From Blasia pusilla (lineage: Eukaryota), in assembly GCA_050084515.1 (NCBI GenBank), contig CM114271.1, forward strand, positions 14,632,001 to 14,696,000: 64,000 bases of DNA. Direction: 5' to 3'. Below, piece after piece: positions 27,307 to 62,022 of this stretch. A program made the translations under genes and the position numbers. The notes beneath the pieces were generated by a model. That model saw only the letters and a program-made list of their open reading frames with translations, was not told where the DNA came from and did no database searches. The number at the start of each line of letters is the position of its first letter. The stretch's first letter is position 1.

Positions 27307-28424
27307 TGTCATGAATATCTAAGTTTATGGTGCTCACGCTAGTGGGGACCCAAAAAGTGAGTCATAATCATAGGTCCAAGGAGGAAAGATCTTGGTTTGA
27401 TCCACTTAAATTGGAATGTAGACTAGCTAGTTGTCAGACTAGGAACGGTGGTAGAATTGGCCATGGGACTAACGCTAGGCAAGACGAGCATGCGCGTAAT
27501 GCTTTAAGACTTGCCTTAAGTCATAAATTGGATGTATCTACTCGCGAGGGTAAGGCAACGCAAGCAAGCAGTGAGACCCTTAAGCTAAGCTCCAAGTCAA
27601 GGTTACGGAGCAAGGAACATGTGATTAGTCAAAATGGGTTAGAAATCATGAGACTAGTCGCAAAACGCAATGAGCGGAAAAATAACCATATCAAAACCAA
27701 ATGTCAGAGTCAAGATGAACCGTGCCATAAGACATATGAGATCAAGGTTCTAAGCCTTAAAATATGTTTGGAAAGTTGAGAGTTGTAGAATATGCAAGAA
27801 GACTTTGGCAAACCATCTTGGGGAAAACTAGTCGAAGGTCAGTATGCGGATCACAAACCACATTTGGATCGGGGGCCAATATCAAGGGTCCAATATGGAC
27901 AATGGGAAAGGCAGGGTTCCCATGGAGAACCCCTGAAGTGCTTATATGGGGGGACACTCTCCCTCCCTATCTATTGAAGTCCATGAACAAGGGACTAATC
28001 GTGATATGTGTTTGGCCTTCTTTCATGTTTGAGCTAAGGCATCATTTGGGACACACCTTGAGGAAATGACCAACTTGCTCTAGTATAGGAAAGAAACTTA
28101 GGGAAGAGACTTTGTAGGGAGATGGTACGCATGTGGGGAGACTCGACCTGATTAGCGATTGGCACCTTCTTGATTGACTTTGGAACACACAATCAATTAA
28201 GTCTTTGAGACTCAATCTAAGACTTCCACTTGCAAAGCTCAAGATCATGAGTGTTTTAGGATGAATCAAGAAGCATTAGAGGATGAACTCTACAACATCA
28301 ATAAAGAAACCATATTTTCTTTTCTAATATATATGTTTTAAAACTTGATGGTTGAGATACATAGATCTTTTCCTTAAGACTCTCGTTGAGAAATGCAGAC
28401 TTCACATCAAATTGGTATTAAAGC
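27307..28424 (+). mobile_element. Probable LTR followed by an iMet-type PBS; internal region lost
   Basis: Begins TGTCATG (~27307) and ends ...CACATCA, then AAT-TGGTATTAAAGC (degenerate TGGTATCAGAGC). The left boundary is tentative. Confidence 0.45.
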
Positions 28425-28429
28425 TAACA

Positions 28430-31400
28430 CTTTGTTCCCATCATAGCTAGAGCAAGTAAAATAGTTGTCATATTATAACAAAGGCCTCTACTAGAAGAAG
28501 ACTCTTTCTTTTCTCTGCACCCCCATATTCCCGCTCTTTAGGAGTGCTAACTAAAAATCCGAAAACTCTTTCTCTACCTTCATAGGACCATCTCTCAACT
28601 TCTCTCTATTCCTTTCATGACCTACAAATGCAGAAGGAATTGAAGTGATCTTGTTCCATCCTGACTTCTAATACGGGCATAATGAGACCCATCATCCATG
28701 ACTTTGGTCTCCATTCTAGATGCTGTGATGTAAGGTTGCCCAAGAATCACAGGATAAGCAGCTCCATTCTGAACAAAGAAATTTTGCTCAATCAACACGT
28801 CTCCGATACGAGTTTTGACGGATGGACAAGCACCATAGAGTTCACCTTTTTGGTTGTTAGCCGCTCGTAGTACCCATCCATGCCCTGTATCAATTGGCCA
28901 CATCCCTTTGTCGTACACACTTCGCGACATGATGTTGATCTCCGAACCATGATCAACGAGAGCCAGAACTGACTCTTGAAGAGAGCCAAGTCGAACTCTA
29001 GCCTCCGTCGTTGCACGCGCCCAATATGATCGAGAATAGTGTCCACCATTATGCCTTTCTTCACCTTGTTCTGTCAAGGCTTCTCCTACTCTCGCCTCTT
29101 TTCCCTGTAAGTCAAGCTTTTGTCCAAACACTTGGAAAAGCTCTTCATCTTCTTCTTCTGTGATGTCAGTATCCAAAGCTCTCACCATCACCATATCTGC
29201 ATTCATCTACCTCTTCCTTTTGATCACATCTATGATCAACTCATGAAAGTCACGTTTGGCTATGCCCAAGACTTCCCTCAAAGAAAACTCTATTTTCGCA
29301 TCCAAAATCCTCTCCTCAAGAATCTCCTTTAAATTCTTGCTTGTCTCGATATCATATTGCAGCTTGTATGTAGGAGTCTTACCCTTGGTCTTCTGAGGAG
29401 ACTTCAATTCGTTCTCCTTTGTCCCTGCTTCTTTGACATGAGAATCCCTCACAGATTCAGATGTGGAAGGTCCTTCTTCTCTTGATGGCTGCGCCTCCGG
29501 TTGTCCTTTTCTTCTTAAGATCCTTGCTCTTCTTGCGGCTTCCTCAGCATCAACACCATCATTGTTGCGTCTCCTCTTCTCCTCCACACTAGCATCTTGC
29601 CAACTCACATGTTTCTCTTGTTCTAGGTATGCTTTAACACACCTAGCTTCCACTAGATCATCCCATCAAGTCAGATGACGGATAGTCTCTACCCCTCATA
29701 TCATAACTTATCGAAGAAATTCTAATGATTCACTTTTAGCTACAGATACAATAGGCGCTTCTATTTTTATTGCAAAGGTATCAGAATCTAATGTCATAGT
29801 GGCAACTCCTTCTTGACTTCTCACTAAGCCTTTCATACCTCCTCTACCAAAGTTGGTATTCAACGACATACCAGTCTGCGTTGAATGAATCTTCCCATGT
29901 TTGAAGTTTACTATTCGATTTCTAAGAGCTTATGAAAATTCCTCACATTCTCGACGTTGATGCTCAACACTATCACACCATATACATCTTCTCACAAAGT
30001 TCTTAATTATTGAAGGAGCACCAACACTAGGATTCCTATCAAGTTTAAGCTCAGCCATTTCTACTCTCAACTTCTTAAACCTTTCACCAACTCATCAATG
30101 GTAGAATCTTCAAGCTTTGCTTGCATGGGCTTAGGCAATGGATTTGAAATTGGTACCTCGGACTTGAATACTGTGGTTCTACCTCTACTTCGACTTTGCT
30201 TTGTGAGGATAGCAACAACTTCTTCCACTTTCTTCCAATTAGTGCTGACACCTCCTTCTTCATTCTTGTCCGCCAACATTATGAAAAGCTTGTCCTCCAA
30301 ATTCTCATCTGCCGCCTCAAGGAATAACTCAGTTTTCCTCAAGTCTAGAGTTGCCCTTTCAAAAGGAGAAAGCTAAAAAAATGCTTCTCAAACTCACGCA
30401 ACAACTCATTTGAAGTCATTCCCTTCCCTGGACGTTGCTCTATCCATTCTAGAAAACTCCTCTTAGTCACCCGATCCACATCATCATCGAAGAATTCTCC
30501 TTTCAGCAACTGTTTGTACTCCTCCCATGAGCTTGGATTTTCTACTCTCAACTTCTTTACTTGACTACGGATCTCTGGTATTACAGCTAACTCAAAACTT
30601 GACACCATATCACCTTTGGGTACACGGTTTACCTCCATCTCACAGACGTACTCTCGAACATACTTGGTGATGTTCTTGCCATCAATTCTCCCCAACTTCT
30701 TCACAATCGCTTGGAGAGCCCTTGTTGATCTTTGCTCTCCGATGTGAACTCCTCCTTGTTGGCTCAACAATGTTGTCAAAGTTCGGAGAAGATCCTCAGC
30801 TCCCTCAGTTCCCATTGATGAAGTACTCCCAAAAGTAGTCATCTTGATAAGACTCCAACTTGCAAACACAAACTACCGCCTCAAAGAGCTCTCAATGGAA
30901 GCACCATTTGTCGTGTCGAGAGTCTTTCTTCGAGCAAGGGCGGGCCTTCTAGCTGCGGTAGATGCGGTCAATGCAAGGTGAACTCTCTAATAAGTTCTCC
31001 TTTTTCAATACAAAATTATGATGTACACTCTCCATTCTCTCACGACAGGTATCACAAATGGAAGTGCCGAGGCGATCACTTCTTTGTAACATCGGACACC
31101 AAAATTCTTAACTATAAAATCCCTATAAACTATTTTACGCTTGTACACGAGGAAGATAGCACAACTAGTGTTAAACCCTACTTGAGCAGGCCTATTGATA
31201 TCCATGGATCGCTATATAATGACATACAAAGTACAATCCCATGTCCTTCCATATGTGACAATAGGAAGAATCATCGGAGTTGGAAATTGCATGACCTGGT
31301 TCATGAACGCCTCCCCAAAGTGATAAACTAAATAGCGAGTGAACCAATGCCTCTCTACAAAGAGTATCTTAACATGGTAAGGATTGAGGAAAGGAAAGTC

Positions 31401-32156
31401 GGGCACAGCTCGTGGTGCACCCCTATCCATGTTTGACACACATTCTCTACTCTCCTCAAGAATGGGTTTTGGCGGAGTTATTCTCCCAAGAGGGGTAATC
31501 CACTCTCATTGGGGAAGTAACAAGCCAAAACATCCGCTATTTTAGAATGACTAAACTCCTCTACGGTGATAAACCTCTCATCCCCCCACACACACACCAC
31601 ACTCTAGAAATCTCTCGAAGAATAGACCATGGTCAAGTTACTCTCCCAAGAGGGGTGATCCACTCTCATTGGAAGAGCAAGCAATCCCAAAGCCATACAC
31701 TCAAGAGAGACACGAGAGACTCAAGATGTGGAATAGAAGGTGATGAACCCTTGAAGGTCCCTCCTCTTTATATACTCACAAGGGATCTACAAGAGTACGA
31801 AATAGAGCTTATCTTATCTTGTGCCACATGGCTTTCTCTCAAGGTTTAGCCAATCACACTTTGACACAAGTAGATTTCCTCTTACCTCTTCCAAAATATC
31901 CTCTTTTACCCATATGATATTTTCCAAATTACCCCAACTAACCTAGCCACCAACCAAGACTACTTTTGCTTTTCATTAAAGCAACTACTTTACTTTTATA
32001 AAGTCATCTTTTATTTATTACCTCCTTTTCCTAAAGTTGGTCCAGCATAAAAGAGGCACTATAAAGAGGTTTAAACATAAGAATCTCCTTTTTCTAAGCC
32101 AATTTACTTAATACTAATGAAACTCTATCTAACACTTAATGACGAAGGATTTTACA
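28430..32156 (-). mobile_element. 3'-truncated Ty3/Gypsy LTR retrotransposon (5' LTR, tRNA-Thr PBS, gag, aspartic protease)
   Basis: LTR ~32156-30909 (TGT...ACA, TATATAAA near 31770, internal ~38-bp duplication). PBS TGGTGCTTCCATTGAGAG at 30906-30889. Gag ORFs 30869-30345 and 30342-30067, Zn knuckle CIWCDSVEHQRREC (~29985-29945). Protease LALVDHGSEINIMS...ILGQPY (29206-28622). Confidence 0.85.
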
Positions 32157-32179
32157 CACTGGTTGATTTTACTATACGA

Positions 32180-33298
32180 CACCGCTCCAAGCTCCAACAT
32201 GCTCCAATCTGTGTGCAACTGGAAAAGACGCCCCGTGATGAGTCTCCTCAAGATGGGCGTGAACGTCAATCTGTCTTAGAACAACTGAAATGCTTGCTCT
32301 TGCTCATCTCCCCAATGCCACTCGTGATCCACCTTGGTTAGCAAGGTTAGCGGCTTTGCAATCGAATTGAATCCCTTGACGTACCGTCGATAGAAGTTTT
32401 CCAATCCCATGAATGCATTAACACGGCTCACATCTGTAGGGCATGGAATGCGTGAGATAGCCTCTACCTTCGTCTGCTGAACACCAAGGCCCCCTGGGTA
32501 TATTGTATGACCTAAGTACTCAATCTAGTCGTAGAAGAACTTGCACTGGCCTCGATGTAGCTTCAGCCCATGTAATTGCAATCGTCAAAACACCTCCTCT
32601 AGATGTCGCTCACGCTCCTCAAGTGTGGCGCTAAAGACTACGATGTCATCAATATAACACCTAGCAAAATCTAGACCAGCCAAGATCCTATCCATGACCC
32701 TCTGAAACTCAGCCGGGGCGTTCTTTAATCCAAATGGTAAGAATCACCACTCGTACAAACAATCCTTCTTGTGAGGATCGATGCCCCAAAATATCGTCTT
32801 CTGCCTGTCCTCCAATGTGATAGGCAACTGATGGTATCCGGCTCGCAAATCCAATGAACGGAAGACCTTTGCGTGACCAATCACATCAAAGATCTCCTCA
32901 AGGATGGGCATGGCATACCTATTGGACTTTATCCGCCGATTGATAGGTCGGTAATCCCCACACATCCGTCTATCCGTCCAGTTGCCATGCACATCCTTCT
33001 TGGCGGGCATGACACTAGCAGATGCAAACTCCCCATGCGACATCTCCACTAGTCTTGCTCCGACCAAGTCCTGGCTCCTACTCTGAATCAGAGCCCTCTC
33101 CATATCACTATACCTGTAGGGTGGTCGGAAGATCGGCGTATCACTCGACAACTCAATGCGGATCCCCGGTCCCTTCAGCGTACCCAAATCCTCCATGCTA
33201 AACGCAAAGTAGCTCCTATAACTCTTGAGGAATTGATGTATTCGGCGCCGCTCTCCTCCTGTCAACTCAGGCCCCATATCTGGCTCCCAAGTCTCCAT
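32180..33298 (-). pseudogene. Gypsy reverse transcriptase and start of RNase H
   Basis: RMCGDYRPIN, LDLRAGYHQL, LPFGLKNAPAEFQRVMD, CYIDDIVVFS, IEYLGH, FMGLENFYRRYV, LHTDWS; contains in-frame stops. Confidence 0.95.
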
Positions 33299-33629
33299 CG
33301 TGACTACGGTAGGACTCTCTGGCGCGGGTATTTGTGGTTGCTATGGTGCAACCCTGTCTCGAACAACAACACTCGGCCACTCTCCTATAGCCGATTGCAA
33401 ACTCTAATCTTCTCCACATGCAGCGCCCAAAACCACGCTCGATGCTGTGGCTATCATCTCCTAGCGTACCTGCAAAACATCCCAAGAAGTCCAAAGGTGT
33501 CTCTCCCGATCTCCCCCGGTGTGTAGATCTCCTCCGGTCTCGCCCCTAGCCACTGCCAACACCGTCTCGGTAGGCATGGGGCTCACCAATGCAATCGTTG
33601 TGATCTGTCGCGATCTCATACGGCGCTAC

Positions 33630-34590
33630 TCAGCCACTCCCAAGCTGAGGATCCATGTCAAGCTATTAATGTCCATCGTCTGACCCAAGACATGGTGTCA
33701 TGATGCCTCTGACACTGACGATACTGCCTTCACTCCTGTGGGAAATCCCATTGCTCGCTCTCTCTCATCGGCGTTGGGCTCCACCAACCCCTAAACCCTG
33801 GTCATCCCAAACCAAGCCAGGACCGGCCTCCTTGTATGCATAGGAAGCAAGAAAACTCACAAACGTGGGCAAGGCTACCCGCGGCCTGCCTAACCTATTG
33901 ACCACAGTCAAGGGTGGTCGATCATCGTGCCTCACTACTTGTGATTGACAACCTGGATCCAGAATGGAATCCATTAACAAATGGGAGGGGCGCCCCACTC
34001 TCGCATACGCCCTCCATAACATCGCATGGTGCACCAAGTTGGTCCACCATAGAGGCGGGCGATGGGCTCTAGAACCTACACTCGCCGCATCCAAGAACAC
34101 TGTTGGGCCAATCCAGGCACGCACCTGATGAGCACTCGTCACCACCCGTGACCTGGAGTCTCCTAAGATCGGCACATTCTCCAGAATGTAGGCAGGAGAA
34201 TGAGATTGGTGCTCCTACAAGTGCCGTAAGACCCTCAACATCTCCCAAAATAACCTAGACCGAGTGTCCGCCAACGCGCTGCCTCGTCCAACACTCGATT
34301 GGCCTTGACATGGACAACCGGAAATGACCAAATCAATGGTCCCTACCCACTCTTAGTCCTGCGCCCCCAACAACGAAATATCCCTCGGTAGGGAACTCTG
34401 GTACCCTTGTACCGTAGACAGTAAGTCGGGAAAACAAAGATGTAACTGCGCCACATGTCGTAGTGAGATGCGCCTTGCAACATCATCACTCTCCACATAC
34501 AGGTACTATTGCATCGCACTCTTGACTGCAAAACAACAGCTAACCTGGTGCTAATCCCTCCAAAGAGATCTAACACTCGAATACCCTCCT
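33630..34590 (-). pseudogene. DNMT3-like DNA (cytosine-5) methyltransferase domain within the retrotransposon polyprotein
   Basis: Motifs in canonical order: I RVLDLFGGI, II YLYVESD, III PRDI, IV IDLVISGCPCQG (catalytic Cys codon 34310-34308), V DTRSRLFWE, VI YILENV (34181-34173), VIII AHRPPLWWTNL, IX ERERAMGFP, X (R)HHVLGQTMD. Two frameshifts and four in-frame stops. Confidence 0.9.
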
Positions 34591-37500
34591 CCGGGAAACA
34601 CCACACAATGGGTGTGGTATCCAAGGGTGTCATCGTAGCACTCCCTGCTACCTCAGGCTCCTCAAACCTGTCACGCTCCGGTGCAAACGCCTCGCTCCAC
34701 GCGGTCTGCACGTGCTCATTTGCCAATCGTCGAAGCTCCTCAGTCAAGCCCCACAACGACACCTCTTCTCCACAGAATGATGCAGCTACCATAACACTCC
34801 TCTCCATTAAAATTTTAGGAACAAGAGTATCCTTTGCATGGACATATCCCTCAATCAAATCACTAGGCCAAGTGATGGCACTGTTAAATGCTGCTAAGGT
34901 CGCCACCTCTACTGGCCGTCCCTCGATCACTGCACATGTGAATCAAACAGGTAATGAGCTAACGCGCCCATCACCTGACTGCCATCCTGGTCTGTAGGAC
35001 GTTGACTCCTCCCAGTAATCCAGGGAAAACCCCATCGGGTATAATATTGTTCCACCAACCAAGACGTCGTAGGACTCTTCATCAGTCACTATCGCCTTGG
35101 CTCGCACCACGGAATTATCTGTAGGATGTCCCGGGAGAATCCTCACCATAACCTCATGGCGGGTGATATACAGTGTGATACTCGCTCCACCCAAGGATGT
35201 CTGTATCCGGAATGGACAACGCTCCACATCGGCTCTCGTCAAGCCCAATCCTCTAAATGACGCTTTTCCCAACATTAGGGGTTGCGCTCCTGAATCCAAC
35301 AAGACGCGCTGCACACTAAAAGCTCTACCTCCGTGACTAACCAATTGGAAGACCTCTCCTCGATTATCCAACAACACAATACCAGGAGAAGCCATGGCAC
35401 GCTCTATCCTGGGTCTAGCGACATCTCCGCCATCCTAGCACCCCTAATCTGCCATGAATTTGACATGGACGGCCCCAGCATCCGCTCCAAGGGCAAGTCC
35501 ATCACCTCCTGTGCAATCACCTCTCAACGTGGTGCAGGAACTCCAACTCCGCGCTCACATAGTGAAGTGGCCAGCCGAAAAGCCTCAACGGGCTTCCCCC
35601 CCAACGTCATAACATCAGAAGCAGAAAATAAAGGAGTGTGGTACACAATGGTGGCCGCCCCCAACAACGTGCTCGACACATGCCCCTCCTGAGCATCAAC
35701 AATAGGAGTCGTCATACTCGCTTCTCCCATCGCCCTTCGTGCCTGCACACCAACAACATCACCAACTCTCCAAGAACTTTGATGAGGACCCATCGATAGG
35801 GTCCTCATCGCTTTGGACAACGTGAAAGATTGAGGAAGCCTAATCTGTTTTCTGGCTTCTCCTCGATATGGATCCAACTCTGCGGTTGCTCCACGCGTCA
35901 CAACTGCGGCAGCCTCTATGTGGGAAATCCCACACATCCAACCAGGATCCTCCATATCTCTGGCTGCTCCATATGATGTCGATGCCACAGATCTGACATC
36001 GAGTAACCTCAATGCCATAGCCGCAATCTGCTCTTGTAGTTGCTGTATCTAAGCAACCATTCTAGCCTCACATCCAGTGTCTCCCTCGGCGCGTCTAGGT
36101 GGTGGTACTCTACCTCCTCCATGGGCAGCTCCACCACCCTGTCGGGCAACTCCAACTCCTCGTCCCTCAATGGGACCACCTGGTGCACGATCTCTAGCCC
36201 ACGTGGACCGGCTACTCGCTCTGTTGCCCTCTCTGGCCCTCGATCCGGATAAAACTCAAGATGTAAACTCAAACACCTGGCGCATGTATGACCATACCTC
36301 TGACAATAGTCACACTGATAACCTCTTGGTGCAGCACCATCTCCTCCTCCATGCTGAGGCACACGTCCATGACCATGACGAGTGCAATCGCGTTGATGAT
36401 GGGCTCCACCACATGACTAACAAGTGATAGTAGGCGGCTACTGTTGAGTCGCATATGAAGGCGCAGGTCTCTGTGGCACGGCCTCCCGGTATCCTCCCTC
36501 ATCTCGTGGTGCCACAGTCGACCTATCTCGGAGTTCACGTTGCTGCACAGGAGGTGCAGCCAATTGTGACTGCTCTCGCCCATAACCGATGGTGGCTACG
36601 CTCTCCTCCTCCATGTTGCGCTCAATGTTCTCAACGGTCCTAAGAACATATCTCAACATAGGGGAGGTGTTCATAAGAAGCACCCCCTCCCGCATCCGTG
36701 TCCGCAGGGTCTGGTCCAACATCGCGTACAATGACTGGATAGCGTGAGCCTCCGTCACCCCTTGAGTGATGTTGATCAACCAACACAAGCAAGTGTAAGC
36801 CTCACGTAAACTCTCACCAGGCGCCTCTGGAAGTCGTGGATGCTCCGCAACTTCTCCGTCCGTACCCTTTGGTAGTTGGCCCTCAACTCAGCGAAGAACT
36901 CAACCACGGGGTTGAACCTGGGACGAACCTCACTAGATGGTGCAACTGCTCTAGTGCGAGTGACCCCTCCAAAAACATCACAAGTGGAAGAGGAAGTAGC
37001 CTCTCTTGACTCCTCCTCCTCATCTGGGAACGGCTCCGTCCATGACACATAGTGTGGGTCATAGTAGAGTCGCCATGCCTCAATCTCGTGGGCATATATG
37101 TGGGAGAACTCATGGTAATCGTCCATGGGCGCCCCCTCTAAATTCAGGAACATACCGTTCCATGCTGTAAATGGGTTGAACTCTCTAGAGTTCTTGGCCC
37201 ACTGGAAGTCGCACCAACTCCTAAACTTTGCTATGAAATCGTGCAACTCAATCGTGCCTACTGCACCTGAAAACCTACGCGGTCCTCTACCCCGATCGTC
37301 CATCTCGTATGCCCAACTGGTAGGACCACTCACAATGTGTGGCGATGTGCTCACAAACTCCTCTACACCCTCCATCTTGTCTGACGATGATACATAAGAA
37401 GGTCGAGGTGGTCCCTTACGTGGAGACCTTCGGAACCTCGCACCACTCCGCGTAAAACCCTAAACCACCTCGCCTCTCCAAGTCCTGAACAGACCCCATG

Positions 37501-38703
37501 ATGACCCTCGTTCCCCTCTCACCCAATCACTCTCAATCTCATGAGTAATCCCTCAATCACTCATCCCAAACATGCGGCACTTGATCTACACTCTCCCTCC
37601 CTGAGACGTGTAACGTGCGGCAACATGCCGCGTGGTGCGGCAAATCGATCAGACTATCATCTCATCGACAACCTACCCTCAACTCCGGACATCCCACACA
37701 GGTATATGTCCCTTAAACCACATACATGAATGATGCTCTCAGCATCCACACAACCCAATATCCCCAAATAAATTATCCAAATCCGAGAATTCCTCACACA
37801 TGTAGGGTAAAAGACCAGAATGGGTAACCTGAACACATGTCGATGTCGAACCTCAGCAACTGCAAATCTTGACCCCAACTCAGTCTTGAAGACAACTCCT
37901 CCAATTAGCAAGTTGTACTCCTCTCGTACTAACGCTCAACCTCCTCGATTTGCGGTGCAAGTCGAGCGGTCCGGTGCGACACTGGCGGCACGAAATGGCT
38001 ACAAACAGCACGACACTCAGGAATGGGATGCGGCACTTGGCGGCATACCCTCCTCAATCAGAAATTCACACACTTTGCTCCTTAGTGAAGGAGCGGTTCC
38101 ATGATTGAGACGGTGTGATGCGACCATGAGCGGCACGACGCAGCAATCGGCGGTGCGTTGCGGTTACGGGCGTCACGGCACGGTACTTGATCGTCGTCGA
38201 GCGGTTACTAATCACAACATAGCAGCATGAAATCAAAACTCAAATACCATAACCGGAGGTCATCTGCCATCAAAGGTTGATGACGGAACTGCGATGACGG
38301 TGGCGACCAAAACAAAGTACGTGGTGGCAACGGAAGTCAGAGAATCAACGAACGTCGTGGAAGACCCTCCACTCTATAATGGCGGAAATGGCAACCAAAG
38401 GGTGGACCATGGACGGTTTATTGATGATGTTGATGACCAACCGATGACAGTGACGGTGAAGATTGATTGTTGATGGTGACTATGATGGCGACGGACGCCA
38501 TCGGCGTGGCGGCTGGTTTAGGGTTTGAACAATTTAACCCTACAAAATTGCCTAGTAATGGAAGTTTTGCAAGATTGACCATAACTTTTTGCTTGCAACT
38601 CCAAATTGCACATTATTTGTATCACAATGTGCATAGCTTCACGATCTACAACAGTGTCAAAAAATATTTTTAAAAAAAAATTCGAGTAAAAATTGATGGG
38701 GAT

Positions 38704-39579
38704 TGTTGTAAAGCCCAATGTCTCTTTCTCCTACACAAAATTTGGCAGCGCTTCCGTGCTGATTTTTCCCAACGAAAATATAAAACCTGTAAAAATACAA
38801 ATCAGCAAGCTACATGGTGCTCTTGAGAGCATCCGCATGGGGCAACCTACCCCCATACTCAATCCCTATAAAAAATTGTGGAGCGCTTCCTCGCGCCACT
38901 CTTCCACATGAACAATTGGCAAATGCAAAGAACAATCAAAGCATCCCTTGCTCCGGTGATCACTCTCATTAGCCGCTGAATGGGGAACACAGTCGTCAAC
39001 CTGCAAAAACAGCAAATGACCACCGAGCTCCCCCATGAAGCTCTCTCACTCTCTCATTCTCTCTTTGTAAAGTAAGATCCAATCTCTCTCTACACCATCT
39101 CACACCATAGCTCTCAAAGGTGTGCACTCTCTCTCATGTCAAACCAAACCCACTCTCCTAATGAGAGGCTTGGGTTACACTCACATGGCAAGGGACCATA
39201 GTTAGGCCGTCTTATGCCAAGAGGTTCAACAAAGAGAGAATGAGCTCTCAAGCTCTCTCTCTTGGAGGTATACTCCCTTCCCTCTCCCAAGCCCTCTCAA
39301 CGGTAACCTATGCTCGCAGGTCATCTCCTTGGATCTTGACCTTCTATAGCGGGTCAAGGGCCAATTCCCAAAGTTGAAATTCAACTCTCCCTAATATGGG
39401 AACTTACCCGAAATAGTAAGTTTCTCTATATGGCTTCAAATGAGCCGAAATGAAGGGGAAACCTGCTCTCTCAGGTTGTGCGAAGCCTCAACAGGTCATT
39501 CTCAACCTCTTGGGCGTGTCCTCCAATACTCGTGCAGACACTCTGCTAGATCCTACCGATCTATCCTAACACTCGTGAT
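38704..39579 (-). repeat. LTR-like repeat of the DNMT-Gypsy family (copy 1)
   Basis: Colinear with the reverse complement of 59121-59997 over its length, and with 49048-49562 over ~510 bp. Confidence 0.85.
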
Positions 39580-43566: not shown

Positions 43567-46500
43567 CTAAATGTAGGAAATTTGTTGCCACTTGTTTGCA
43601 CTAAAACTAGCATCTCGGTAGCCCATTTTGTTCAGCAGCCGATCCATTTGTCTAGCTCCCTCCTCATCACCTGCCCTCATACAGCGCCTCCAGATTTTGA
43701 AAATACTTTCTCTGGGTGGGGTGTGTCCTGCATTAACCTTCAAACCACCGTGTTGGAATTAGCAACATCACCCTAATAACTAATTACATCCAACCCGGAC
43801 AATATTCCAAAATGCCTATCACCATGACATTGACAAGTATCATTGTTCAAGCCAACCAGACCATTGAGGTAAAATGAGATCCAAACTTTCAGAATTTACG
43901 GCAACAATTTATAAGCAAACTAACAGTCAGATTGCATGAGAAACACTGGGCTTTGCTCGAATGTGGCCCCAGGAATGTGTAACAATTTTCAATAGATCAG
44001 GCTTATTAATTCATCTTCTGCCTCGAGTAACCACAAAAGAAAGATACACTAAACCCGGACCACCTACCATGGCATCCAACGTATCCATAGCAGCCTTGAT
44101 ATCTCGATTAACAAGATGGGCATGAATGAGAACGCTGTAAGTTCGATGATCTGGTGCTATTGCCATTTCTGACATGTAACTGAAAATCTGTAGCACTTCT
44201 GCAGTCTTCACACGACAAAATGAAGAACAAATACATTCAGAACCCCACTGCAGAATTCATGCAATATCTGTTGGCCACATCTGGATACAACAACATTCAG
44301 CTAAGGGTTGAAGCACACTTGTATCCAGACATGACCTATCCTTCAAGCTATGTGTCCAAACACCAGGATCCAAAAACGAAATCAAAACTTTCTTTTTGCC
44401 AAGCCAATGCTGAGTTCCGAAACTTGACGACAGCAAAATTTGTGAGTGATATGTTGAACTCTAGTAACCATTTTGAAGTGAAAAATATAAGCGGAAAGGC
44501 TCAGGATCTGATTGTTTGACTACTTAAAGGATCCATACTGAAGCCGAACAGGAATAAAAAACTGAACCCCTTCTAGCACATCTCAGACACTGCTTTTATA
44601 CCTTCCTGTTTTTGCCAAAGACATCCAACAGGGCATTGCAGGAGTGCACATCAGGCATCAAATTGAAAGTGGTCCCAATTGCTTCAAAAGTTTGGTAAGC
44701 TCGATCATAATCCCAAATGTTTGAACACCCTTGAATCACGCAATTGATTGCTGACAGAGCCACCTGTTTCTCACTACTTTGCATTTCTGCCAATTTGTAG
44801 TAAGCCTGTGAGCAACACACACACCTATTCTCGGCTTAGTATCAAAATTACAAACAATTTAAGCTTGAGGAAATTGAGATCACGATACAGTAAGACAACA
44901 GCTTCAAATGCTCTGATCTATCTTCCTCTCCAGATCCTGATAAAAGTGGCTGATTAACCTGTACAACAACATAGATAAACTGATACAGAATTTGATTTAA
45001 GAATTACATATAACTGTCGCCATTCAAATATCCAGAGTGACGAAGCTCAACTCTTGGTTGGTATTAAAGCACAAAAATTCAACATCACCTCAACCTCACC
45101 GCATCAAGAGCTGCAAACCCGCCTCGTGTACATGCCAATACAAGCGGTCGCAAAGATGAAACTGGGGAGAAAATTTCTCTCTCTACGTCATTCTGGGAAG
45201 CACCATACACAGATTCCATCTCATGCAATGTGCTAAAAGCTATGTCAAAGTCCCCAGCTGAAGCAAGTGCATGTATGCGGGCATGATAACTTGAGGGACA
45301 AGGAGGTTTGGTTCCACGGAAGGAACTTCGGAGTATGGTCCAGGCTTCTGTTGATAAAGCAGCATCCCCAGCCCTGGCAGCACAGGCAAGCATTGCATGA
45401 ATGCCACCTTCGTCCATTGTTAGGTTTCTTGTAGACCTGCTTAATTCTGTTTCGGAGAGAAATTTAAGGGCAAGGTAGACACACTCAGCATCGTCAAACT
45501 CTGCTGCAACTACAGCCAATTCCGCAATGTTTTGTAGTTGTGGTACAACATTATGCGCCTGCACACGGCAATACCAAGCATCTCAAGCCATCAGAACCCA
45601 GCCATAAGAGCTCTTTTAGTACCGAATGGACTCTAGAGCAACGTATGTAGTGAAGCCAATGGCACTAGGTTAGGAACTCTAGATACAGCGAAGTAACAGG
45701 GATCGATTGTGGAAACTCGTGAGTTAAATTATGGACAGCACAAGCACTTTCACATGGGCAGGAGTTACCTTGAGGTCTTTTAACAGGGACACAGCAGTCC
45801 TAGTGCGAAGCAGTCGTGTAGCAGCGAGCAGCAACTCGTTGTAGGTTGTTTTACTGGGCACATAACCCCTTTGATACATTGCTTGTAAATGCTTCATGGC
45901 AGAATCAAGTCTTCTATCGAGCGCACAAAGAACAATCACAAAGTTGTACGAATCGCCATCTGGTTGCGCCTCCGGCCCAGATTGCTCCATTCTGATTGAT
46001 AGAAAACCAGAAAGAGAGAATTGGTATGCGTGTCTAGTTCACTCGACGGAAAGACCCCGAGAAAATTCAATATCGATCGCCAATCAGACTACCGCAGTAG
46101 CTAGTGAGCCGAAAGGTTTTCACGGTCCGGCAAATCGTAGGGCGTAAAATCAAAACTTTGCACGACAACCTGCCAAATTTCTGAACACATATCAGATTTC
46201 ACGCACCTCTCAAGTATCTTCTCTGCCATTTGGGAATCCCGCTGACGAAAGATAGCTCGCAAGAGAAAATTGTACGTGAGGAGATTAGGCTTCGCTCCGC
46301 TGAACTCCATCTCCTTCACAATTTGCATCAGATTCTGAGGATCTACACCTAGCCTTAGTTTCGCATGAAGCAAGAGATTGTAGGCCATTACATTTGGGAC
46401 CTTTGCCTTCCCATCAAGATCCGGGAATTTGACCCAGTCTTCAAACAGTTGGATAGTTTCTTCCAGCTTACCAAGGGAAAGACGATTGGACATCTCTCTT

Positions 46501-46955
46501 CCTAGCATTTCAATACTAAGCCTTCCTACTTCAGATGGAGGACTCAGACCTGCCGGAAGGCCAGCTGCAGGGTTGGGAAGCACAGAGAATCCTGAAATAA
46601 CAGGGCTGTAACTACGGAGTGGAGAGGATACAGGTCGGTACCCTGGCGCAGGCTCCAGGGCAGGGATTTCTGTTTCCAATTGCGAGCTTTGAGAGACCAA
46701 AGCACTTGTTGTAAAGCTCCTCGTTCCATGAAGTGCACGACCAAATTTGATTATTCCTGACTCGTTGATCGAATCCCCAGATTTATCCGTCAAAATCGAG
46801 CTGCTTAAACGGTTGCTTTCCACTACGCTCACCTTCGGGGGTAGAAAGCTCAAGGAAAATAGACATCTGCTTAAACCCTTTAAAGTCGACGCATCTCCAT
46901 TAAAATGCCTCGACAAATACTTGGTGGACGCTCGCAAAGAAGCCATGCTTTCCAC
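43567..46955 (-). CDS. Mitochondrial P-class pentatricopeptide repeat protein (At1g26460-like), 6 exons, 647 aa
   Basis: Exons 46955-46207, 45991-45769, 45558-45100, 44805-44602, 44205-44068, 43737-43567. Total 1944 nt, in frame, TAG at 43569-43567. Arg/Ser/Leu-rich presequence. PPR motifs PNVMAYNLLL, PNLLTYNFLL, PDGDSYNFVI, PSKTTYNELL, PDVHSCNALL, PDHRTYSVLI. GCSNIWDYDRAYQTFEAI recalls the At1g26460 family (from memory). Confidence 0.92.
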
Positions 46956-47366
46956 CCGTGTAATTCAACCAGATCTCTCTTCACACTTAACCGGGCATCG
47001 GAAGCACGAGCATCAGAGGTGCCGGATCGACTTGTAAGCGTCAGGACTACTGGTTTAATCAATTTCCAGCTCCTGCGTCGTCTCGTGCTCTTCCAGCGGT
47101 CGCATCTTTTCCCTCCTTTTGAAAATGTGCATCACTTCCTGTTCCTGCCGATCACGCCTGCACCAATGCCCTGTCCAGAAAAATAACAAACACCGCTCTA
47201 CCTAAAACCCCCGCAACCGATTCAACGATCTCCGTCACATAATCTGAGATTGATTACATGTTGATTTCTTCGAAAAGTCGAACCCATGGTACATCAAAAC
47301 CCCCCACACTCCTCACTCTCGTGAGAATCAGACTTCGTTTCGTTGCGTATCCCGTCCTTTCACAGT

Positions 47367-47375: not shown

Positions 47376-48919
47376 TTGGACGGAGACTCACGGAACTCAA
47401 CGGAGAGGTTTGTCTTATTTCACGAGGGCGTATCGTAATGAGGGAAAAAGAAGAAATTTTTTTCTTTGTAATTCAAACCACCCCTTCGAGAGGAATGGGA
47501 GAAAACCAGTACCTTTTAGGATTTTGCCTTTTATAATGGAATAACAAGAATAGATGGGGAACAATCGTATTCGGATCGGTGCTAACACATCAGATGTTTG
47601 GAGGGAGAACACTAATCCGGACACACATATATCCTATTTCATATTAATGACAAAATTAATACCAAGCTCGGATGCTAATAGATGCTAACATCCTACCTTT
47701 CAAAATTCGCATTCTAAAGTCAAGAAAGTGCAAAATAATTTACATTTTGCAAGCTATGTAGGGGTAGTAAATAATTAGTAAACATTTGTGGAAGACACTT
47801 GGATAACCTAGATGGGAAAAAAGGAGGGGGGGGGGGGAGAGTGTATGTAGGGGCCGTAAAGACCAAAAATTGTGATTAGAGAATGGAGATGACGGAACAC
47901 AAAAAATGCTCCATGGTTGACCGAAAATAGGTGTTTAGTTCTTGTATGGCAAAGTTACCATGATTCTCCCTCCATGCATAGACATGGTGGGTGCTTGGCG
48001 GGAAAATCTTGGAGCAGCAAGCTTCAAGCTTATGAACTTATTCCACCTTGTAGTACCTTATGTGCTTATTTTAGACGTTGAGCATGCATCAATAGAATGT
48101 TGCCTAAGTGGGAAGGGTTCTTGTTGCAAAGTTGGTGGATGTTGAGATGGAAAAAGAATTCAATTATGAATTCCCTCCGACTTGGGTGAAAGATTGTACA
48201 AGTTCTTACCAACAAAGAATGTCGTTACACTTACCATGCGTGCAAATTCCTCATAAATAACCATAATGGACGTTGTAATAAAACTATAGAATCTTGAAGG
48301 GGCCCTAAAGAGATTACCGACCACGTTCATAGTGAATACGACTATATTTGGTAGTGGATACTCTTTTTGTGATGTGATGGACCATGTAGTCCATTGTCTC
48401 TCGAAGTATATTGTAAGGCATGTTGGTGATGGACTTAACTAAGGTGATTTCGGAAGTTTCTTTCGAATGTTTAAGCATGGACAAGCATGTGTTTCATGTT
48501 CAACTACAATCGACAAGGTTGTAGATGCTACTTGTAGAGCATAGCATGGGTTCAATGGAAAGTGTTGCTCATAGAGCGACATTGCATCTATTTTCAACTT
48601 CAAGGTCACTTCCACTTGCTGTGAATGTGGATGGAGATGCACAATCAAAAAATATAATTTGTTCATTTGGTACAATAGACGTGATGAGCCGCATAGGCAA
48701 AAACCTACTCAACAAGTATCCAAGGAGAAAACGTGACGTTCATGTTGTAGTGGCCAAATCTCATCATCAAGTGAAGGACCTAAAAAGAAGCTTTGATAAC
48801 ACTAGAGGCACCATGAATAGGTTGGAAGCCAAATTTGATAAATTTTGCCATCATGTAAGCTCATTAGTGGAGGCTATTAGATTCATGATTGAGTCTTTGA
48901 AGGTAAGTGTTCTTGGCAT

Positions 48920-50630
48920 TGTCCTGCGCATACACATCACTACACAACATACATTGTTGTCACCAAACATACACATAAACACATACGATCCCATGCTAAC
49001 TCATGGCATCCAAACAACGAGACGAGAAGTACCAAAATATCTCCAATTGTAAATCAATGAGATCTCTCTCAACATCTCGCACCAAGCTCTCCATGGTGTG
49101 CACTCTCTCCCTCATGTCAAACCAAATCCACTATCCTAATGAGAGTCTCGGGTTACACACACAAGGCAAGGAGGACCATAGCTCCGTCGCCCCATGCCAA
49201 GAGGTTCAACAAAGAGAGAATGAGCTCTCAAGCTACATCTCTTGGAGGTATACACCCTTCCCTCTCCCAAGCTCTCTCTCCTCGATAACCTAAGCTCCCA
49301 GATCACCTTCTTAGCTCTTGACCTACTGTAGCGGGTCAAGAGCCACTTCCCAAAGTAGAAATGCAACTATGCTCTAAATAGAAACTTACCCAAAATAGTA
49401 AGTTTCTCTACATGGCTCCAAATGAGCTGAAACAAAGGGGAAATCTGCTTTCTCAAGTTACCCATGGTCTCAACAGGTCATCCTCAACCTTCTAAGGTTG
49501 TCCTCCAATATATCCAAAGGCACTCTACTAGATCTCATCGATCTATCCTAAAAGACGTGATAGTTGTCGTGCGCATACACATCACTACACAACATACATC
49601 GTTGTCACCGAACACACACATAATCACGCACGATCCCATGCTAGCTCATGGCATTCAAACAACGATACGAGAAGTACCAAAATATCTCCAATCGCCTCCT
49701 AATTGGTGATTAGGTCCCTCTAACTCTAGATAGCCATCTATTCCTACCTACCATTACATACATCTCTCGGACGCTAAGAGCAAAAAGGTCGGTTGATCAT
49801 GTGGCCCCATCACTAGTCGTCTTCTTGTCATCCATATCACAGATACAAGTCGGAATGTAGAACTACCTACGTTATGTACATCTGGGACACATCCATCATC
49901 CCTGATGAACCCTAGTGAGAGATGGCGTCAACATACATTGCAAGCTAAGCATGTAGGAACTACTGCTAAGCTCGTATCAACTATACCATCAATGTTAGGA
50001 AGGCAACATGGCGCACAATTACGCACGTGATCCTTCCAAACCATACCATCGCGTACCTCCAATAAGAGAACACCAGATGGCAAAACCTCACGTACTCTCA
50101 AGATAGTGCGTTTTGCAGTCATATCCAATGTCGTGGGTGTCGTTAACTGCAAGTAGACATAATCTCCCTGATGAAACCTCCGGATAGTAGGTCGGTAATC
50201 ACCTCCCTGAATAGTCACATACCTCAACGTATCCCGATACTGCACAATCGCCAAGTTCTCAAACGCCATGGGCATCATTCTCCGAAATAACTCAGCCCTC
50301 TGAGAACATGCTCGCATCCACACATGAGGGTCATCAAGGTTCAACACCTCGCCAACATCTCGACAAATGGCCGCAGGTAGATCCTGCTCTTGGCCATAAA
50401 GTAGCAAGTACGGTGAGAAAGACGCTAAGGATGTCTGCCTGCTGAATCTGTATCTCATCGCCAACCAAGACTACTAGAGGTCCCAATCTCCTAGATGACC
50501 TCTCTGCAAGCCATACTTTGCAATCCTATCTTCATCGTCTGCACAACCCTCTCCGCTAGTCCATCCGCCTCAGGATGATCTCGTGAAGTGGTGCGGTGGT
50601 CGATCAACGCCGGATCACACAAGGCCTGAA
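48920..50630 (-). mobile_element. 3' end of a Gypsy element of the DNMT-Gypsy LTR family: integrase C-terminal half, PHD remnant and terminal repeats
   Basis: Integrase core HRTTSRDHPEADGLAERVVQTMK (~50600-50530), then AMRYRFSRQTSLASFSPYLLLYG and FHQGDYVYL. Ends CNVC and, after a frameshift, LTPSLTRVHQG*WMCPRCT*. Segment 49562-49048 matches the family LTR. Confidence 0.85.
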
Positions 50631-51914
50631 ACAAGGGCTATTGTGACTATTTGAAGCCACAAAAAATAAGAAGCAGCCCCTATGCTTATATGCCTACATT
50701 TGACAAATAGATGCTCCATCAAAAAAATGCACAAGAAATAAGTGTCCTTCCTTTGGAAATAATCATCCGCCATCTTTTGCATGTCCATGGCACCTACTCA
50801 ATCGGATCTTTAAACTAACATGGTCAACTCACAAAAGAATCCCAAATTTTTTCCATGAACAATGATTTAGAGAACGTCAGGACTAATATCCCGCCAAAAT
50901 TTACTACAATCATGAAGCTTGAATTTGAGAAGTAGGAGGCGCATACTTTTTGACATCACCCAAGCTTGCAACATCTTATACTTGAAGAGGGTGCATAGGC
51001 TTGGTTTGTATTGATGTGTTGAAGCGTCAAAGACTAGGTGTTAGAAGAAAAAATTTCATCTATTTCATGCAACAATATTTGTAGTTTAAGAGAGAATAGA
51101 TACTAGGCTTTGATAGGAGACAATGTGTTTAGTCAGATGTACATGTGGAGAGGCCTTGAGTGACCTACATGCATTTTCTAAGAATGTCGTAGAGATTTCT
51201 TGGAGGTTCTTGATTTATTAAAAGCCTGCTATGTAGATGGAGGTTGAGATTGAGGACCAATAACCACCGTATATCTAATATATGATACTCACCTTGGGAT
51301 ATAACAAGGTCAACTCCTCCACGATAGGTTTCTTCTCTAGTAGGTATTGTGGGCATATACATCGCTACACAACCTATATTGATATCAAATATTAATCATA
51401 AGTATATTAACATAATACATACTACATAACATATCACATAAAGAGGTCATACAATAATAATCAAGCCAAATCGTAGACTTACTCGGTATGAGGAAATCCA
51501 TATTTAATGCATGTCAATAACATCTTGTCGTAGCTTATGCTTGGAAGGCTCAACTATGGAAAGATGAGCATCTTCAAATCTCCCTTTAGGATATACCTCA
51601 TGGTATTCATATTATCCATTCTAGTCTTAATCTTGCACTTGTGAGGATTTTCCTAAGGTGTTGGGTATTTGACGTATTACACTGAAAGGGAAAATATGTA
51701 TTGAAGGTAGAATATTTGTGGATTAGGCACGGCATATACTTATATGGGATGCCTTTGAGGGGTTTCCCATCATCTATATTATGATAGAGTCAACCTATAC
51801 TAGTATAGATTGTTACCACGCCATGCCATATATGGTATGCAAACAATCTACGCTACATATATACCAAATCATATGGCAATGTGGATTGGGGTTTTTGTGT
51901 TTAGTTGGCAATTA

Positions 51915-59997: not shown

Positions 59998-60112
59998 ACC
60001 TGCACCAAGAGCACCGGCATGGAGCACCGGTGTGGAGAAATCCTCCCCCATACTCAAGCTATTTTAGGTAAGTCCCCTTTTGAGTATATGATCAACTTTC
60101 TATTTTTGATAA

Positions 60113-62022
60113 GTGACCCTTGACCTCCTACATCAGGTCAAGAGCCAAAGAGGCGACTTGGGAGCATAGGTTACCATTGAGAGAGCTTGGGAGAGGGGAG
60201 GGGTATACCTCAAGGAGAGAGAGCTTGAGCACTCATTCTCTCTTTGTTGAACCTGTTGGCATGCGGCGGCGGAGCTATGGTCTTGCTTGCCTTGTGTGTG
60301 GAACCCAAGCCTCTCATTAGGAGAGTGGATTTGGTTTAACATTGAGAGTGCACACATGTGAGAACTATGGTGTTGTGAGAGAGATTGAATCTTATTTTAC
60401 AAAGAGAGAATGAGTAAGTGAGAGAGCTTCATGGGGGAGCTCGCTGATTGCTCGATGTTTGGTGCAAGTTGGGGGATCATGTTCCCCGCTTCATGGCTCA
60501 TGGGAGTGCTCACTGGAGCAAGAGCCGTGCGAGTTTGTTGTTTTTCTTTGCTGATTTTTTGTAAGGGCAAGTGGCATGCGGAAGCGCTACCCAATTTTTG
60601 ATAGGAATTGAGTATGGGGGAGGATTTCTCCATGTCGGTGCTCCCTGTCAGTTTTTGGTGGAAAATCAAATGGAGAAACCAATTGACAAGATCATAGATC
60701 GAGAAGTGGTGTACGCTGATGAAGAAAGAGTGCATAATTTGGAGATTGGACCATGGAGTTCTGATAATTTTTGTCGGGCTGCCATAGCCACCGTTCCAAG
60801 GTCAAGTAAGGAAAGATAGTGGAGATCCAATTTTCCCCAGGGCTTATTCTAGTTTAAAAAATAATTTAAAAAATAATAATACTGTTGATAGGGGACAATA
60901 TCTATCCTACCACGTCCTAGCCGACTGTCCCGGAGATGCGCAAACCGATTGCGCACTTGCTACTGCCGTTGTATGTTGTGTGGTCTGTCGACGCTTGAGG
61001 GCCGCAACCCGGTTGTCGGACTTCCTAGTGCCAACAAAATACTGAGGTGCCGTGTAGTTGTGCGTTGCTCCATCCGACCATGCAAAACTGCCGCCCATAG
61101 AGCCAGGCGTCTGAATCTCTGTCCCCGACCGCCACGGCAGCCTGTGTTCAGGGCCGATTGTTTGGCAATAGGCAACGCGTTGCTAGTAGACTGTTTTCAA
61201 CACCACGTTGCTTGTTGCCGCACAACACACGTCTCAGTGAGAGAGTGAAGGTTTAGTGCCGCGTGTTGGATTGAGTGATTGAGTGATTACTCGCAAGATT
61301 GAGAGTGATCGTGTTAGAGGGGCACGAGGGTCATCACAACGTCCTTTTGGGACTCTAAGAGGCAATGTGGTGGACCTGAGAGTAACTCTAGAGGGTTTAC
61401 CCGGAGTCGTGCGAGGTTTCGAGAGTGTCCACATGAGAGACCACTTCGATCTTCTTATGCGTCGTCTTCAAACAAGGGGGAGAGTGTAGAGGAGTGTGCT
61501 AGTGATCCACCACACATATTGAGTGGTCCTACCAGTTGGGCATACGAGATGGACGACCTGGGTAGAGGACTGCGTAGGTTTTCGGGTGTTATAGGCACTA
61601 TAGAGTTAGATGACTTCATTGGGGGGTTTAGGAGTAGGTGTAACTCATAGCGGGCTAGGAACTCCAGAGAGTTCAACCCGTTTACAACATGGAACGGATT
61701 GTTCCAGCATTTAGAGGGGGCATCTATGGATGATAACTATGAGTTCTCGAAGAGATATGCCCATAAGATTGAGGTCTGGAGACTCTACTATGACCCAGAC
61801 TACGTATCATGGACTGAGTCATTTCCAGATGAGGAGGAGGATTCAGGAGAGGGTTCCTCCACCAATGATGGTTAGGAGGGGTGACTCGCACTGGAGCAAT
61901 TGCATCGTCTAGTCGAGTTCATCCCAGGTTCAACCCGGTGGTTGAGTTCTTTGTTGAGTTTAGGGTTAGCTACCAAGGGGTACGAACGGAGAAGTTGCGG
62001 AGCATCCACAACTTCTAGAGGC
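60113..62022 (+). mobile_element. Third DNMT-Gypsy family copy: partial LTR, leader and gag N-terminus
   Basis: 60113-60640 repeats the internal part of the LTR. 61476-62022 is colinear with the gag at 37390-36825 (SGPTSWAYEMDD.GRG.RRFSG..GTIEL.DF; YQ.VRTEKLRSIH.F). Interrupted at 62023 by a Copia element. Confidence 0.85.

Follow-up and report, generated by a model that had tools for sequence, protein, structure and literature searches.

A decayed Ty3/Gypsy-type element of Blasia pusilla is very probably a copy of a retrotransposon family that carries a DNMT3-like methyltransferase

Retrotransposons with a DNA methyltransferase (DNMT) domain of their own were described by de Mendoza 2018 (PMC5890265). 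The paper reports KnitGypsy-Dnmt3 in Klebsormidium nitens, with Ka/Ks below 0.2, and SymbioDIRS-Dnmt3 in Symbiodinium, the only DNMT borne by a transposable element with shown CG methylation activity. It places the Klebsormidium Gypsy elements with Dnmt3, and a figure legend gives them a DIRS repeat structure together with Gypsy domains. A 2025 paper in MBE (PMC12344493) mentions retrotransposon-embedded DNMT3 “in streptophytes”, citing the 2018 work, and a 2026 bioRxiv preprint (10.64898/2026.05.21.726589) likewise mentions “streptophyte” Gypsy-DNMT3 generally. Why a retrotransposon should carry its host's type of silencing enzyme has been a question since 2018, and neither of the known carriers, Symbiodinium and Klebsormidium, is an easy organism to work on. 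Here, we analyzed a stretch of 64,000 nucleotides from Blasia pusilla (contig CM114271.1 of assembly GCA_050084515.1, positions 14,632,001 to 14,696,000 of the forward strand; hereafter the window). The region at 32181-39579 on the minus strand is very probably a dead, 3'-truncated copy of a Ty3/Gypsy-type family carrying a DNMT3-like methyltransferase. This family belongs to the known Gypsy-DNMT3 kind, which we traced to liverworts, mosses, and Closterium.

Like KnitGypsy-Dnmt3, the window's family has a DNMT3-like domain in a Gypsy pol open reading frame without introns. In both, split or DIRS-like repeats take the place of plain long terminal repeats (LTRs), so the repeats form a second link between the two. 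The systems differ in that KnitGypsy-Dnmt3 has a charophyte alga as host and the window's family probably a liverwort, that the K. nitens and window domains share only 34% identity, and that the window's family is high-copy, whereas few copies are reported for K. nitens (PMC5890265). The K. nitens protein GAQ93235.1, possibly one of the elements of PMC5890265, shares the order zf-CCHC, protease (PR), DNMT. SymbioDIRS-Dnmt3 also has a DNMT3-type domain in a retrotransposon pol, but it is a DIRS element with a different reverse transcriptase (RT) lineage and, according to PMC5890265, an independent capture; we set it apart on the basis of that description. A preliminary description of the window, made from its sequence, had linked the element to the 2018 work, and this link holds: GAQ93235.1 has the same gag-PR-DNMT order and lies with the window on one side of the DNMT tree. 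The preliminary description cited no such element from a land plant; in the open full-text literature, supplements and subscription journals apart, we also found no description of Gypsy-DNMT3 in Marchantia, bryophytes, or other land plants. With our analysis, the known distribution of Gypsy-DNMT3, so far a single charophyte, grows to include Zygnematophyceae, mosses, and liverworts. We also resolved the family anatomy, gag-PR-DNMT-RT-RNase H (RH)-integrase (INT) with split direct repeats, and obtained evidence of transcription. The window copy by itself is an ordinary dead transposon.

To describe this copy, we followed its tblastn matches along the minus strand. A collinear path runs from gag (37288-36252) through PR (35419-34517) and DNMT (34505-33804 and 33829-33650) to RT-RH (33310-32138). 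The gag region, with an ATG at about 37375, contains two frame changes and in-frame stops, and is 49% identical to Marchantia over 37288-36821 and 36-40% identical over 36818-36252. The protease motif VLLDSGAQ lies at about 35288-35296, upstream of the DNMT domain; over 35419-34517, identity to the Marchantia PR region is 45-49%, with a single stop at 34945 and a change of frame near 35415. Downstream of the DNMT domain, a three-frame Pfam scan of 28000-38000 matched RVT_1 at about 32500-32974 (E 2.6e-24), the RT motif YIDD occupies 32645-32656, and identity to Marchantia RT-RH is 59% over 33310-32138, a stretch that contains 4 stops. These positions, with the protease at about 35290, bear out the earlier placement of the methyltransferase between PR and RT, on the same strand and without introns.

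The copy ends within RNase H, where the Pfam scan put the first half of a domain at about 32160-32314, with no further part of the element at lower coordinates, and where the tblastn path also stops. We found no integrase of this copy at lower coordinates past 32181. We place the break point at 32180/32181 because, on either side of it, the window and the RNA reads of other copies diverge. The diverging reads belong to two different repeat families; this junction arose either when another transcribed repeat cut the element or when the element inserted beside such a repeat. The window copy thus retains only PR, RT, and half of RNase H of the Ty3/Gypsy pol order. Between gag and RNase H, the frame changes near 36820, 36260, 35415, 34510, and 33800. 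The GC content of the copy is 0.50-0.53, and that of the AT-rich surroundings is 0.30-0.42.

All seven motifs listed in the preliminary description, which had read a whole C5 cytosine methyltransferase (C5-MTase) domain after correcting two frameshifts, were present on the minus strand. In a three-frame translation of 32600-37600, RVLDLFGGI lies at 34553-34579, YLYVESD starts at 34505, and DLVISGCPCQG and ILENV follow, with PCQ at 34305-34313 and ENV at 34173-34181; AHRPPLWWTNL occupies 34035-34067, ERAMGFP 33740-33760, and VLGQ 33680-33691. The conserved motifs of C5-MTases are numbered, among them I, IV, VI, VIII, IX, and X. Here, catalytic motifs I, IV (PC), VI (ENV), VIII, IX, and X stand in canonical order on the minus strand. 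The domain is split into three frame segments (34346-34942, 33768-34505, and 33629-33790), and the two frameshifts, near 34510 and 33800, were as claimed. What had gone uncounted were the in-frame stops at 34353-34355, 34215-34217, and 33698-33700, together with a further one near 33628, where the domain ends. No open frame able to give an enzyme was found in the domain of the window copy; the frame is open in the relatives L003, L059, L064, P0231, and P0235 (L, metagenome loci; P, proteins).

The proposed check with the Pfam profile PF00145 gave a match: 33768-34505, with stops read as X, scored 38.6 bits, with the cut-off at 22 (E 1.1e-9). This match spans profile positions 61-120 of 324 only, and matches of the relatives reach positions 4-233. 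The full score required stops to be read as X; when the six stop-free pieces were scanned singly, the PCQ piece matched (E 3.2e-8) and the other five gave nothing. The domain match is far beyond chance, because the relatives match at E 4e-88.

To determine what kind of methyltransferase this is, we compared it with solved structures in the Protein Data Bank (PDB). A single-sequence search returned 31 matches at E≤0.01, comprising 29 to DNMT3A, 3B, or 3C (best E 7.6e-6) and two to bacterial enzymes. With a profile of 18 relatives, the 29 best matches were DNMT3A, 3C, and 3B (E 2.4e-16 to 5.6e-12), followed by M.HhaI (1.3e-8), tobacco DRM (NtDRM, 2.3e-7), DRM2 (1.9e-6), and DNMT2 (1.6e-4); neither DNMT1 nor CMT appeared among matches at E≤0.001. 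An AlphaFold2 model of the stop-free relative L064:6482-7882 reached a pLDDT of 80.6 and a pTM of 0.77. Foldseek matched this model to DNMT3A/B/C only, among the PDB matches listed to rank 50, with target-normalised TM scores of 0.75-0.83 against DNMT3 catalytic-domain chains. The alignment with DNMT3A is collinear over profile positions 55-234, whereas that with DRM covers 54-115 only. The motif order is not rearranged, because motif I lies upstream and ERAMGFP and VLGQ lie downstream in the window's own sequence. Profile and fold thus support the earlier assignment to an unpermuted, DNMT3-like domain, relative to PDB references that include no DNMT4, DNMT5, or plant DNMT3. Animal DNMT3A/3B/3C are the closest solved relatives by both measures, and they are collinear, but identity is only about 20%; the Pfam search found no PWWP or ADD reader domain, and the domain is located between PR and RT. 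Plant DRM is a distant DNMT3-type relative with weak scores, the match lying at the C-terminal end of the DRM chain.

These rankings bear on an alternative in which the domain acts on RNA, methylating genomic RNA or the primer tRNA (as DNMT2 does tRNA) and so affecting packaging, stability, or priming. The domain does adjoin RT in an RNA-handling complex, de Mendoza 2018 raises RNA methylation for a LINE-borne DNMT, and the Klebsormidium Gypsy domain produced no DNA methylation in yeast (PMC5890265). However, the profile favors DNMT3A/B/C over DNMT2 by 2.4e-16 to 1.6e-4, the listed fold matches are all DNMT3, and the yeast result is inconclusive because human DNMT3B also failed in the same assay (PMC5890265). 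We consider action on RNA unlikely and continue with a DNMT3-like enzyme acting on DNA as the preferred reading.

We then asked how widely the arrangement occurs. A protein search (432-2000 residues) yielded 27 matches: 16 in Marchantia polymorpha, two in Calypogeia fissa, two in Sphagnum, one in Haematococcus, and six unnamed. The window domain is 42-66% identical to 24 out of 27 of them. The preliminary description had called the domain hidden; the 16 Marchantia polymorpha, two Calypogeia, and two Sphagnum gene models are in fact public as hypothetical proteins. A HMMER search returned 1,370 proteins at E≤0.001, 25 of which were at E≤1e-30, while a protein atlas yielded nothing more specific than generic DNA_methylase clusters. 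Using probes cut from related proteins, we detected retrotransposon domains beside the DNMT in 93 out of 177 proteins. The DNMT follows gag/PR or precedes RT, as in the window, in 37 out of 93, and follows RT/RNase H or precedes integrase in 56 out of 93. Named carriers of the window's type are Marchantia, Calypogeia, Sphagnum fallax, Closterium spp., and Klebsormidium nitens. GAQ93235.1 (P0077) of K. nitens contains zf-CCHC, aspartic protease, and DNA_methylase in that order, and the Closterium proteins have the same gag-PR-DNMT order, with RT where the protein extends that far. In two metagenome proteins, P0231 and P0235 (2,318 and 2,327 aa), zf-CCHC, PR, DNMT, RVT_1, RNase H, and integrase are joined in one chain. 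The Ty3/Gypsy pol order PR-RT-RNase H-integrase, with RVT_1 and rve, is complete in these two proteins and in loci.

From the metagenome scan, which gave 112 relatives, we kept 80 loci (L001-L080). PR, DNMT, and RT occur in this order in 25 out of 29 loci of at least 9 kb, 23 of which also have gag upstream; the preliminary description had asked whether other copies carry the domain, and they do. Among the remaining four, three have gag-PR-DNMT-integrase without RT and RNase H, and one is rearranged. The single gag-pol frame of the family is gag(CCHC)-protease-DNMT3-like methyltransferase-RT-RNase H-integrase. This recurrence decides against a one-off capture or an assembly chimera, in which a fragment of a host DNMT3 would sit inside a single Gypsy copy. 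That the 64-kb window holds just one DNMT domain would suit such an event, but the order recurs in the metagenome loci and in Marchantia, Closterium, and K. nitens proteins, and RNA and DNA reads of the host species span both DNMT junctions, covering 30 out of 30 bins. We therefore rejected this explanation, whose probability we regard as negligible, in favor of a family that carries the domain as a regular part of pol.

Phylogenetic analysis gave a consistent grouping. We built unrooted trees with FastTree (202 rows) and IQ-TREE (quick search, LG+G4, 73 rows); support values from a quick search with long rows are to be read with care. In the FastTree tree, all 45 rows of the window's type (45 out of 45) and the window fall in one 73-row set with a support of 99. 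In the IQ-TREE tree, 65 rows (45 of the PR-DNMT type, 19 with the domain only, and the window) are split from eight RT-RH-DNMT-INT rows with an SH-aLRT of 99. A bryophyte group of 21 rows (support 94) unites the window with Calypogeia, Marchantia, metagenome loci, and unnamed proteins. Eleven Marchantia rows (among P0005-P0019) form a clade with a support of 100, and their end branches of 0.003-0.11 suggest recent copying. The Closterium rows make up a separate clade, and GAQ93235.1 of K. nitens joins two unnamed proteins at 100 and lies on the window's side of the support-99 branch. Judged by sequence, the DNMT domains of K. nitens, Closterium, Sphagnum-like loci, Calypogeia, Marchantia, and the window form one group, with the window placed among liverworts.

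In a second, larger Gypsy-type set, a related C5-MTase follows RNase H and precedes integrase, and a PHD finger is often present (P0027, P0201, P0128, P0229, P0230, and about 50 unnamed proteins). Its named hosts are the green algae Haematococcus, Chromochloris, Chlamydomonas eustigma, and Cymbomonas. The DNMT domains of these RT-RH-DNMT-integrase(-PHD) elements are detectable relatives, 27-38% identical, but they follow RNase H and are split from the window's group at a support of 99. We found no description of the RNase H-DNMT-integrase order in the literature examined. EpiLTRs, as presented in the 2026 preprint (10.64898/2026.05.21.726589), are also LTR-type elements with a C5-MTase in pol, but their DNMT is at the 3' end of pol and was placed near DNMT4.

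The DNMT domain is conserved between lineages as much as RT: identity between the window and Marchantia is 31-50% in gag, 45-49% in the PR region, 59-61% in DNMT, and 58-64% in RT-RH. Comparison of the window with 47 loci gave a pN of 0.25 (range 0.21-0.41) and a saturated pS of 0.82, and because synonymous sites are saturated we report no dN/dS ratio for this comparison. Conservation equal to that of RT, together with synonymous saturation between lineages, indicates that the domain has been kept by long-term selection. Within the metagenome family, dN/dS (Nei-Gojobori) had a median of 0.61 over 952 pairs and was 0.26 for the nine pairs with dS >1.

The pattern of conserved residues speaks to whether the domain still catalyzes. 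In an alignment of 18 sequences, G63, Q67, S70, E109, D139, S145, H148, R149, W154, and N156 are among the invariant columns, and at least 90% of rows retain catalytic C66; a 31-sequence alignment agrees. The domain could instead have lost catalysis and been retained as a DNA- or chromatin-binding module, for example one tethering the pre-integration complex to heterochromatin. Such a loss would fit with there being no Gypsy-DNMT3 of demonstrated activity (PMC5890265) and with the absence of a strict PC[QN] match in 20 of the 59 proteins that fall with the PR-DNMT type in the tree. However, many of these misses are fragments or decayed copies, and in both alignments the catalytic Cys, the Glu of ENV, and the HR.R..W.N block are invariant or nearly so, which is hard to explain without catalysis. 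We judge a purely binding role improbable, slightly more so than action on RNA, and retain the reading of a catalytic domain.

To evaluate transcription in the host species, we aligned three RNA runs, with 6-12% of each run sampled, to 32100-35500 at a likeness of at least 85%. The three runs gave 2,037, 1,975, and 2,298 aligned reads, which covered 30 out of 30 bins across PR-DNMT-RT. Reads at least 99% alike to the window numbered only 18, 45, and 25, so the RNA comes mostly from other copies. Most reads differ in length from the window beside the frame breaks near 35420, 34513, and 33797. At 33700, a different letter was present in 37 out of 37, 40 out of 41, and 64 out of 64 reads whose first mate is on the plus strand (141 out of 142 in total), so a sense codon replaces the window's stop at 33698-33700. 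Transcribed copies thus do not share the frame breaks of the window copy. In one DNA run, 60,051 contig pieces aligned, with about 100 contigs aligning at many places, and the family is therefore high-copy in the host species.

A family that is both high-copy and transcribed might also act in trans, its methyltransferase modifying the host genome or rival transposons and adding to de novo methylation by the host. Such spill-over is discussed for Symbiodinium in de Mendoza 2018, but the K. nitens methylome is ordinary according to the same paper (PMC5890265). We hold an effect in trans to be about as unlikely as action on RNA, and prefer a mechanism in which the enzyme serves its own element. 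In intact members, the methyltransferase would be made as part of Gag-Pol and packaged together with RT and integrase. It would then methylate the element's own new double-stranded cDNA, or the fresh insertion, at cytosine C5. A new copy would in this way enter the genome already marked like host heterochromatin, which could serve as camouflage or as self-restraint of copy number. That the family enzyme methylates its own cDNA or new insertion is a tentative proposal, to which we give somewhat less than an even chance. Protease release and cDNA methylation are presented as speculation by de Mendoza 2018 itself (PMC5890265). More doubtful is the broader view of one old streptophyte-wide lineage (Klebsormidium, Closterium, mosses, and liverworts) that is young, abundant, and transcribed in liverworts, including Marchantia polymorpha, and whose active DNMT3 shapes methylation of new insertions or the host genome. 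Because Marchantia polymorpha, which is transformable and for which methylome data exist, harbors very similar and probably recent copies, the question becomes testable.

Several observations weigh against this interpretation. The window copy encodes nothing and does nothing: between gag and RNase H its frame changes five times and there are at least 14 in-frame stops, and integrase is lacking. For this heavily mutated and truncated copy, the earlier statement that the element encodes its own methyltransferase is overstated. Most related DNA copies are also dead, with three out of 47 full-length single-frame matches stop-free; the other 44 loci with such a match (at least 226 residues) hold one to ten stops. 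For the 37 closest pairs (dS <0.1), dN/dS was 0.95, so recent inserted copies decay neutrally. For the purifying selection that had been proposed as a check, the comparison between lineages gave a positive answer; within the family, the median was 0.61. All six motifs were kept in only three out of 11 Marchantia models, as scored by regular expressions on models that may include predicted introns. The DNMT3-like label is based on solved structures; for a place inside the DNMT3 clade the support is indirect, in that GAQ93235.1, on the same side of the tree, belongs to the group that PMC5890265 placed with Dnmt3. The Klebsormidium domain gave no methylation in the yeast assay, an outcome called inconclusive by its authors (PMC5890265). 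First mates on the plus strand were about 10 to 100 times commoner than on the minus strand, and family transcripts are probably sense to the minus-strand element, which presumes the usual stranded library chemistry. Finally, protease release, packaging, and substrate (DNA or RNA) are all steps that we infer.

In the dead loci among L001-L080, stops are many and frameshifts few, and transitions prevail among differences between the host's copies. These patterns would fit decay by deamination of methylated cytosines.

The ends of the DNMT-carrying family are split direct repeats of the form X1...Y1-X2-Y2, not plain LTRs. A repeat X (about 320-340 nt) lies upstream of gag, and Y (115 nt), X, and Y follow integrase, in five out of 22 loci of at least 10 kb (L027, L064, L066, L067, and L075, by self-comparison). 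Three more loci have the X pair alone and one has the Y pair alone; in the remaining loci, the sequence does not include both ends or no repeats were found. Identical LTRs at both ends, as in Ty3/Gypsy elements, were not found, and no LTR pair around the window copy emerged from a search for repeats of at least 100 nt. In the window, the probable X1 (Table 1) is about 1.7 kb upstream of gag, compared with about 1.15-1.3 kb in relatives, and it is this spacing that leads us to assign it to the DNMT-carrying copy. No Y repeat was found flanking X1, and inspection by eye gave no convincing primer-binding site downstream of it. The window's Y is 70-76% identical in nucleotides to Y of metagenome loci (L027, L064, L067, L077, and others). 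Such identity despite saturated synonymous sites suggests a conserved cis element, and Y may serve in priming or strand transfer.

Table 1. Coordinates of the DNMT-carrying copy and of further copies of its family in the window
Feature	Coordinates	Strand	Evidence
Probable 5' terminal repeat X1 of the DNMT-carrying copy	39085..39579	-	82% identical over ~500 nt to 49063-49561 (X2, other copy)
gag region, degenerate	36252..37375	-	tblastn to gag part of Marchantia polyproteins
Aspartic protease region and linker	34643..35419	-	VLLDSGAQ motif; tblastn
DNMT3-like C5 cytosine methyltransferase domain, broken	33629..34642	-	PF00145, E 1.1e-9
Reverse transcriptase	32500..33310	-	RVT_1; tblastn; YIDD
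First half of RNase H domain, then break point	32181..32314	-	RT_RNaseH_2 positions 1-51 of 100 only
Integrase fragment, second copy of the DNMT-carrying family	49875..50632	-	tblastx 55-69% to integrase of L027, L064; tblastn to P0025-P0027
3' end Y1-X2-Y2 (split direct repeat), second copy	48919..49692	-	Repeats
Third fragmentary copy: X repeat, leader, gag start	60059..62022	+	Nucleotide identity; tblastn

The window contains further remains of the family. In the second copy, X2 (49063-49561) has a Y repeat on either side, at 49564-49692 and 48919-49047, and the two Y sequences share 92% identity. In the third, 61201-62022 is 78.5% identical to 36823-37637, the X-like repeat at 60059-60385 is 79% identical, and gag tblastn matches cover 61549-62021. 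An X-type repeat at 59123-59643, in plus-strand element orientation and probably left from a fourth copy, is 79% identical to 49040-49560 and lacks an accompanying Y in the window.

Other features lie nearby. Between two copies of the family sits an apparent host gene, represented by a pentatricopeptide-repeat (PPR) exon with a 287-aa open frame (46104-46964, minus strand), whose best named match, in Riccia fluitans, is 82% identical over 35% of the query. Taken with the tree, this match indicates that the host is probably a liverwort. Downstream of the break point on the minus strand, at 28303-28477 and 29200-29509, weak matches below the Pfam cut-off to RVT_2 (Copia-type RT, E 1.5e-5) and DUF4100 (E 1.8e-4) are debris of other transposons. 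The longest open frame of the window, at 21523-22848 on the minus strand (441 aa), may represent the N-terminal part of a Helitron helicase-like protein.

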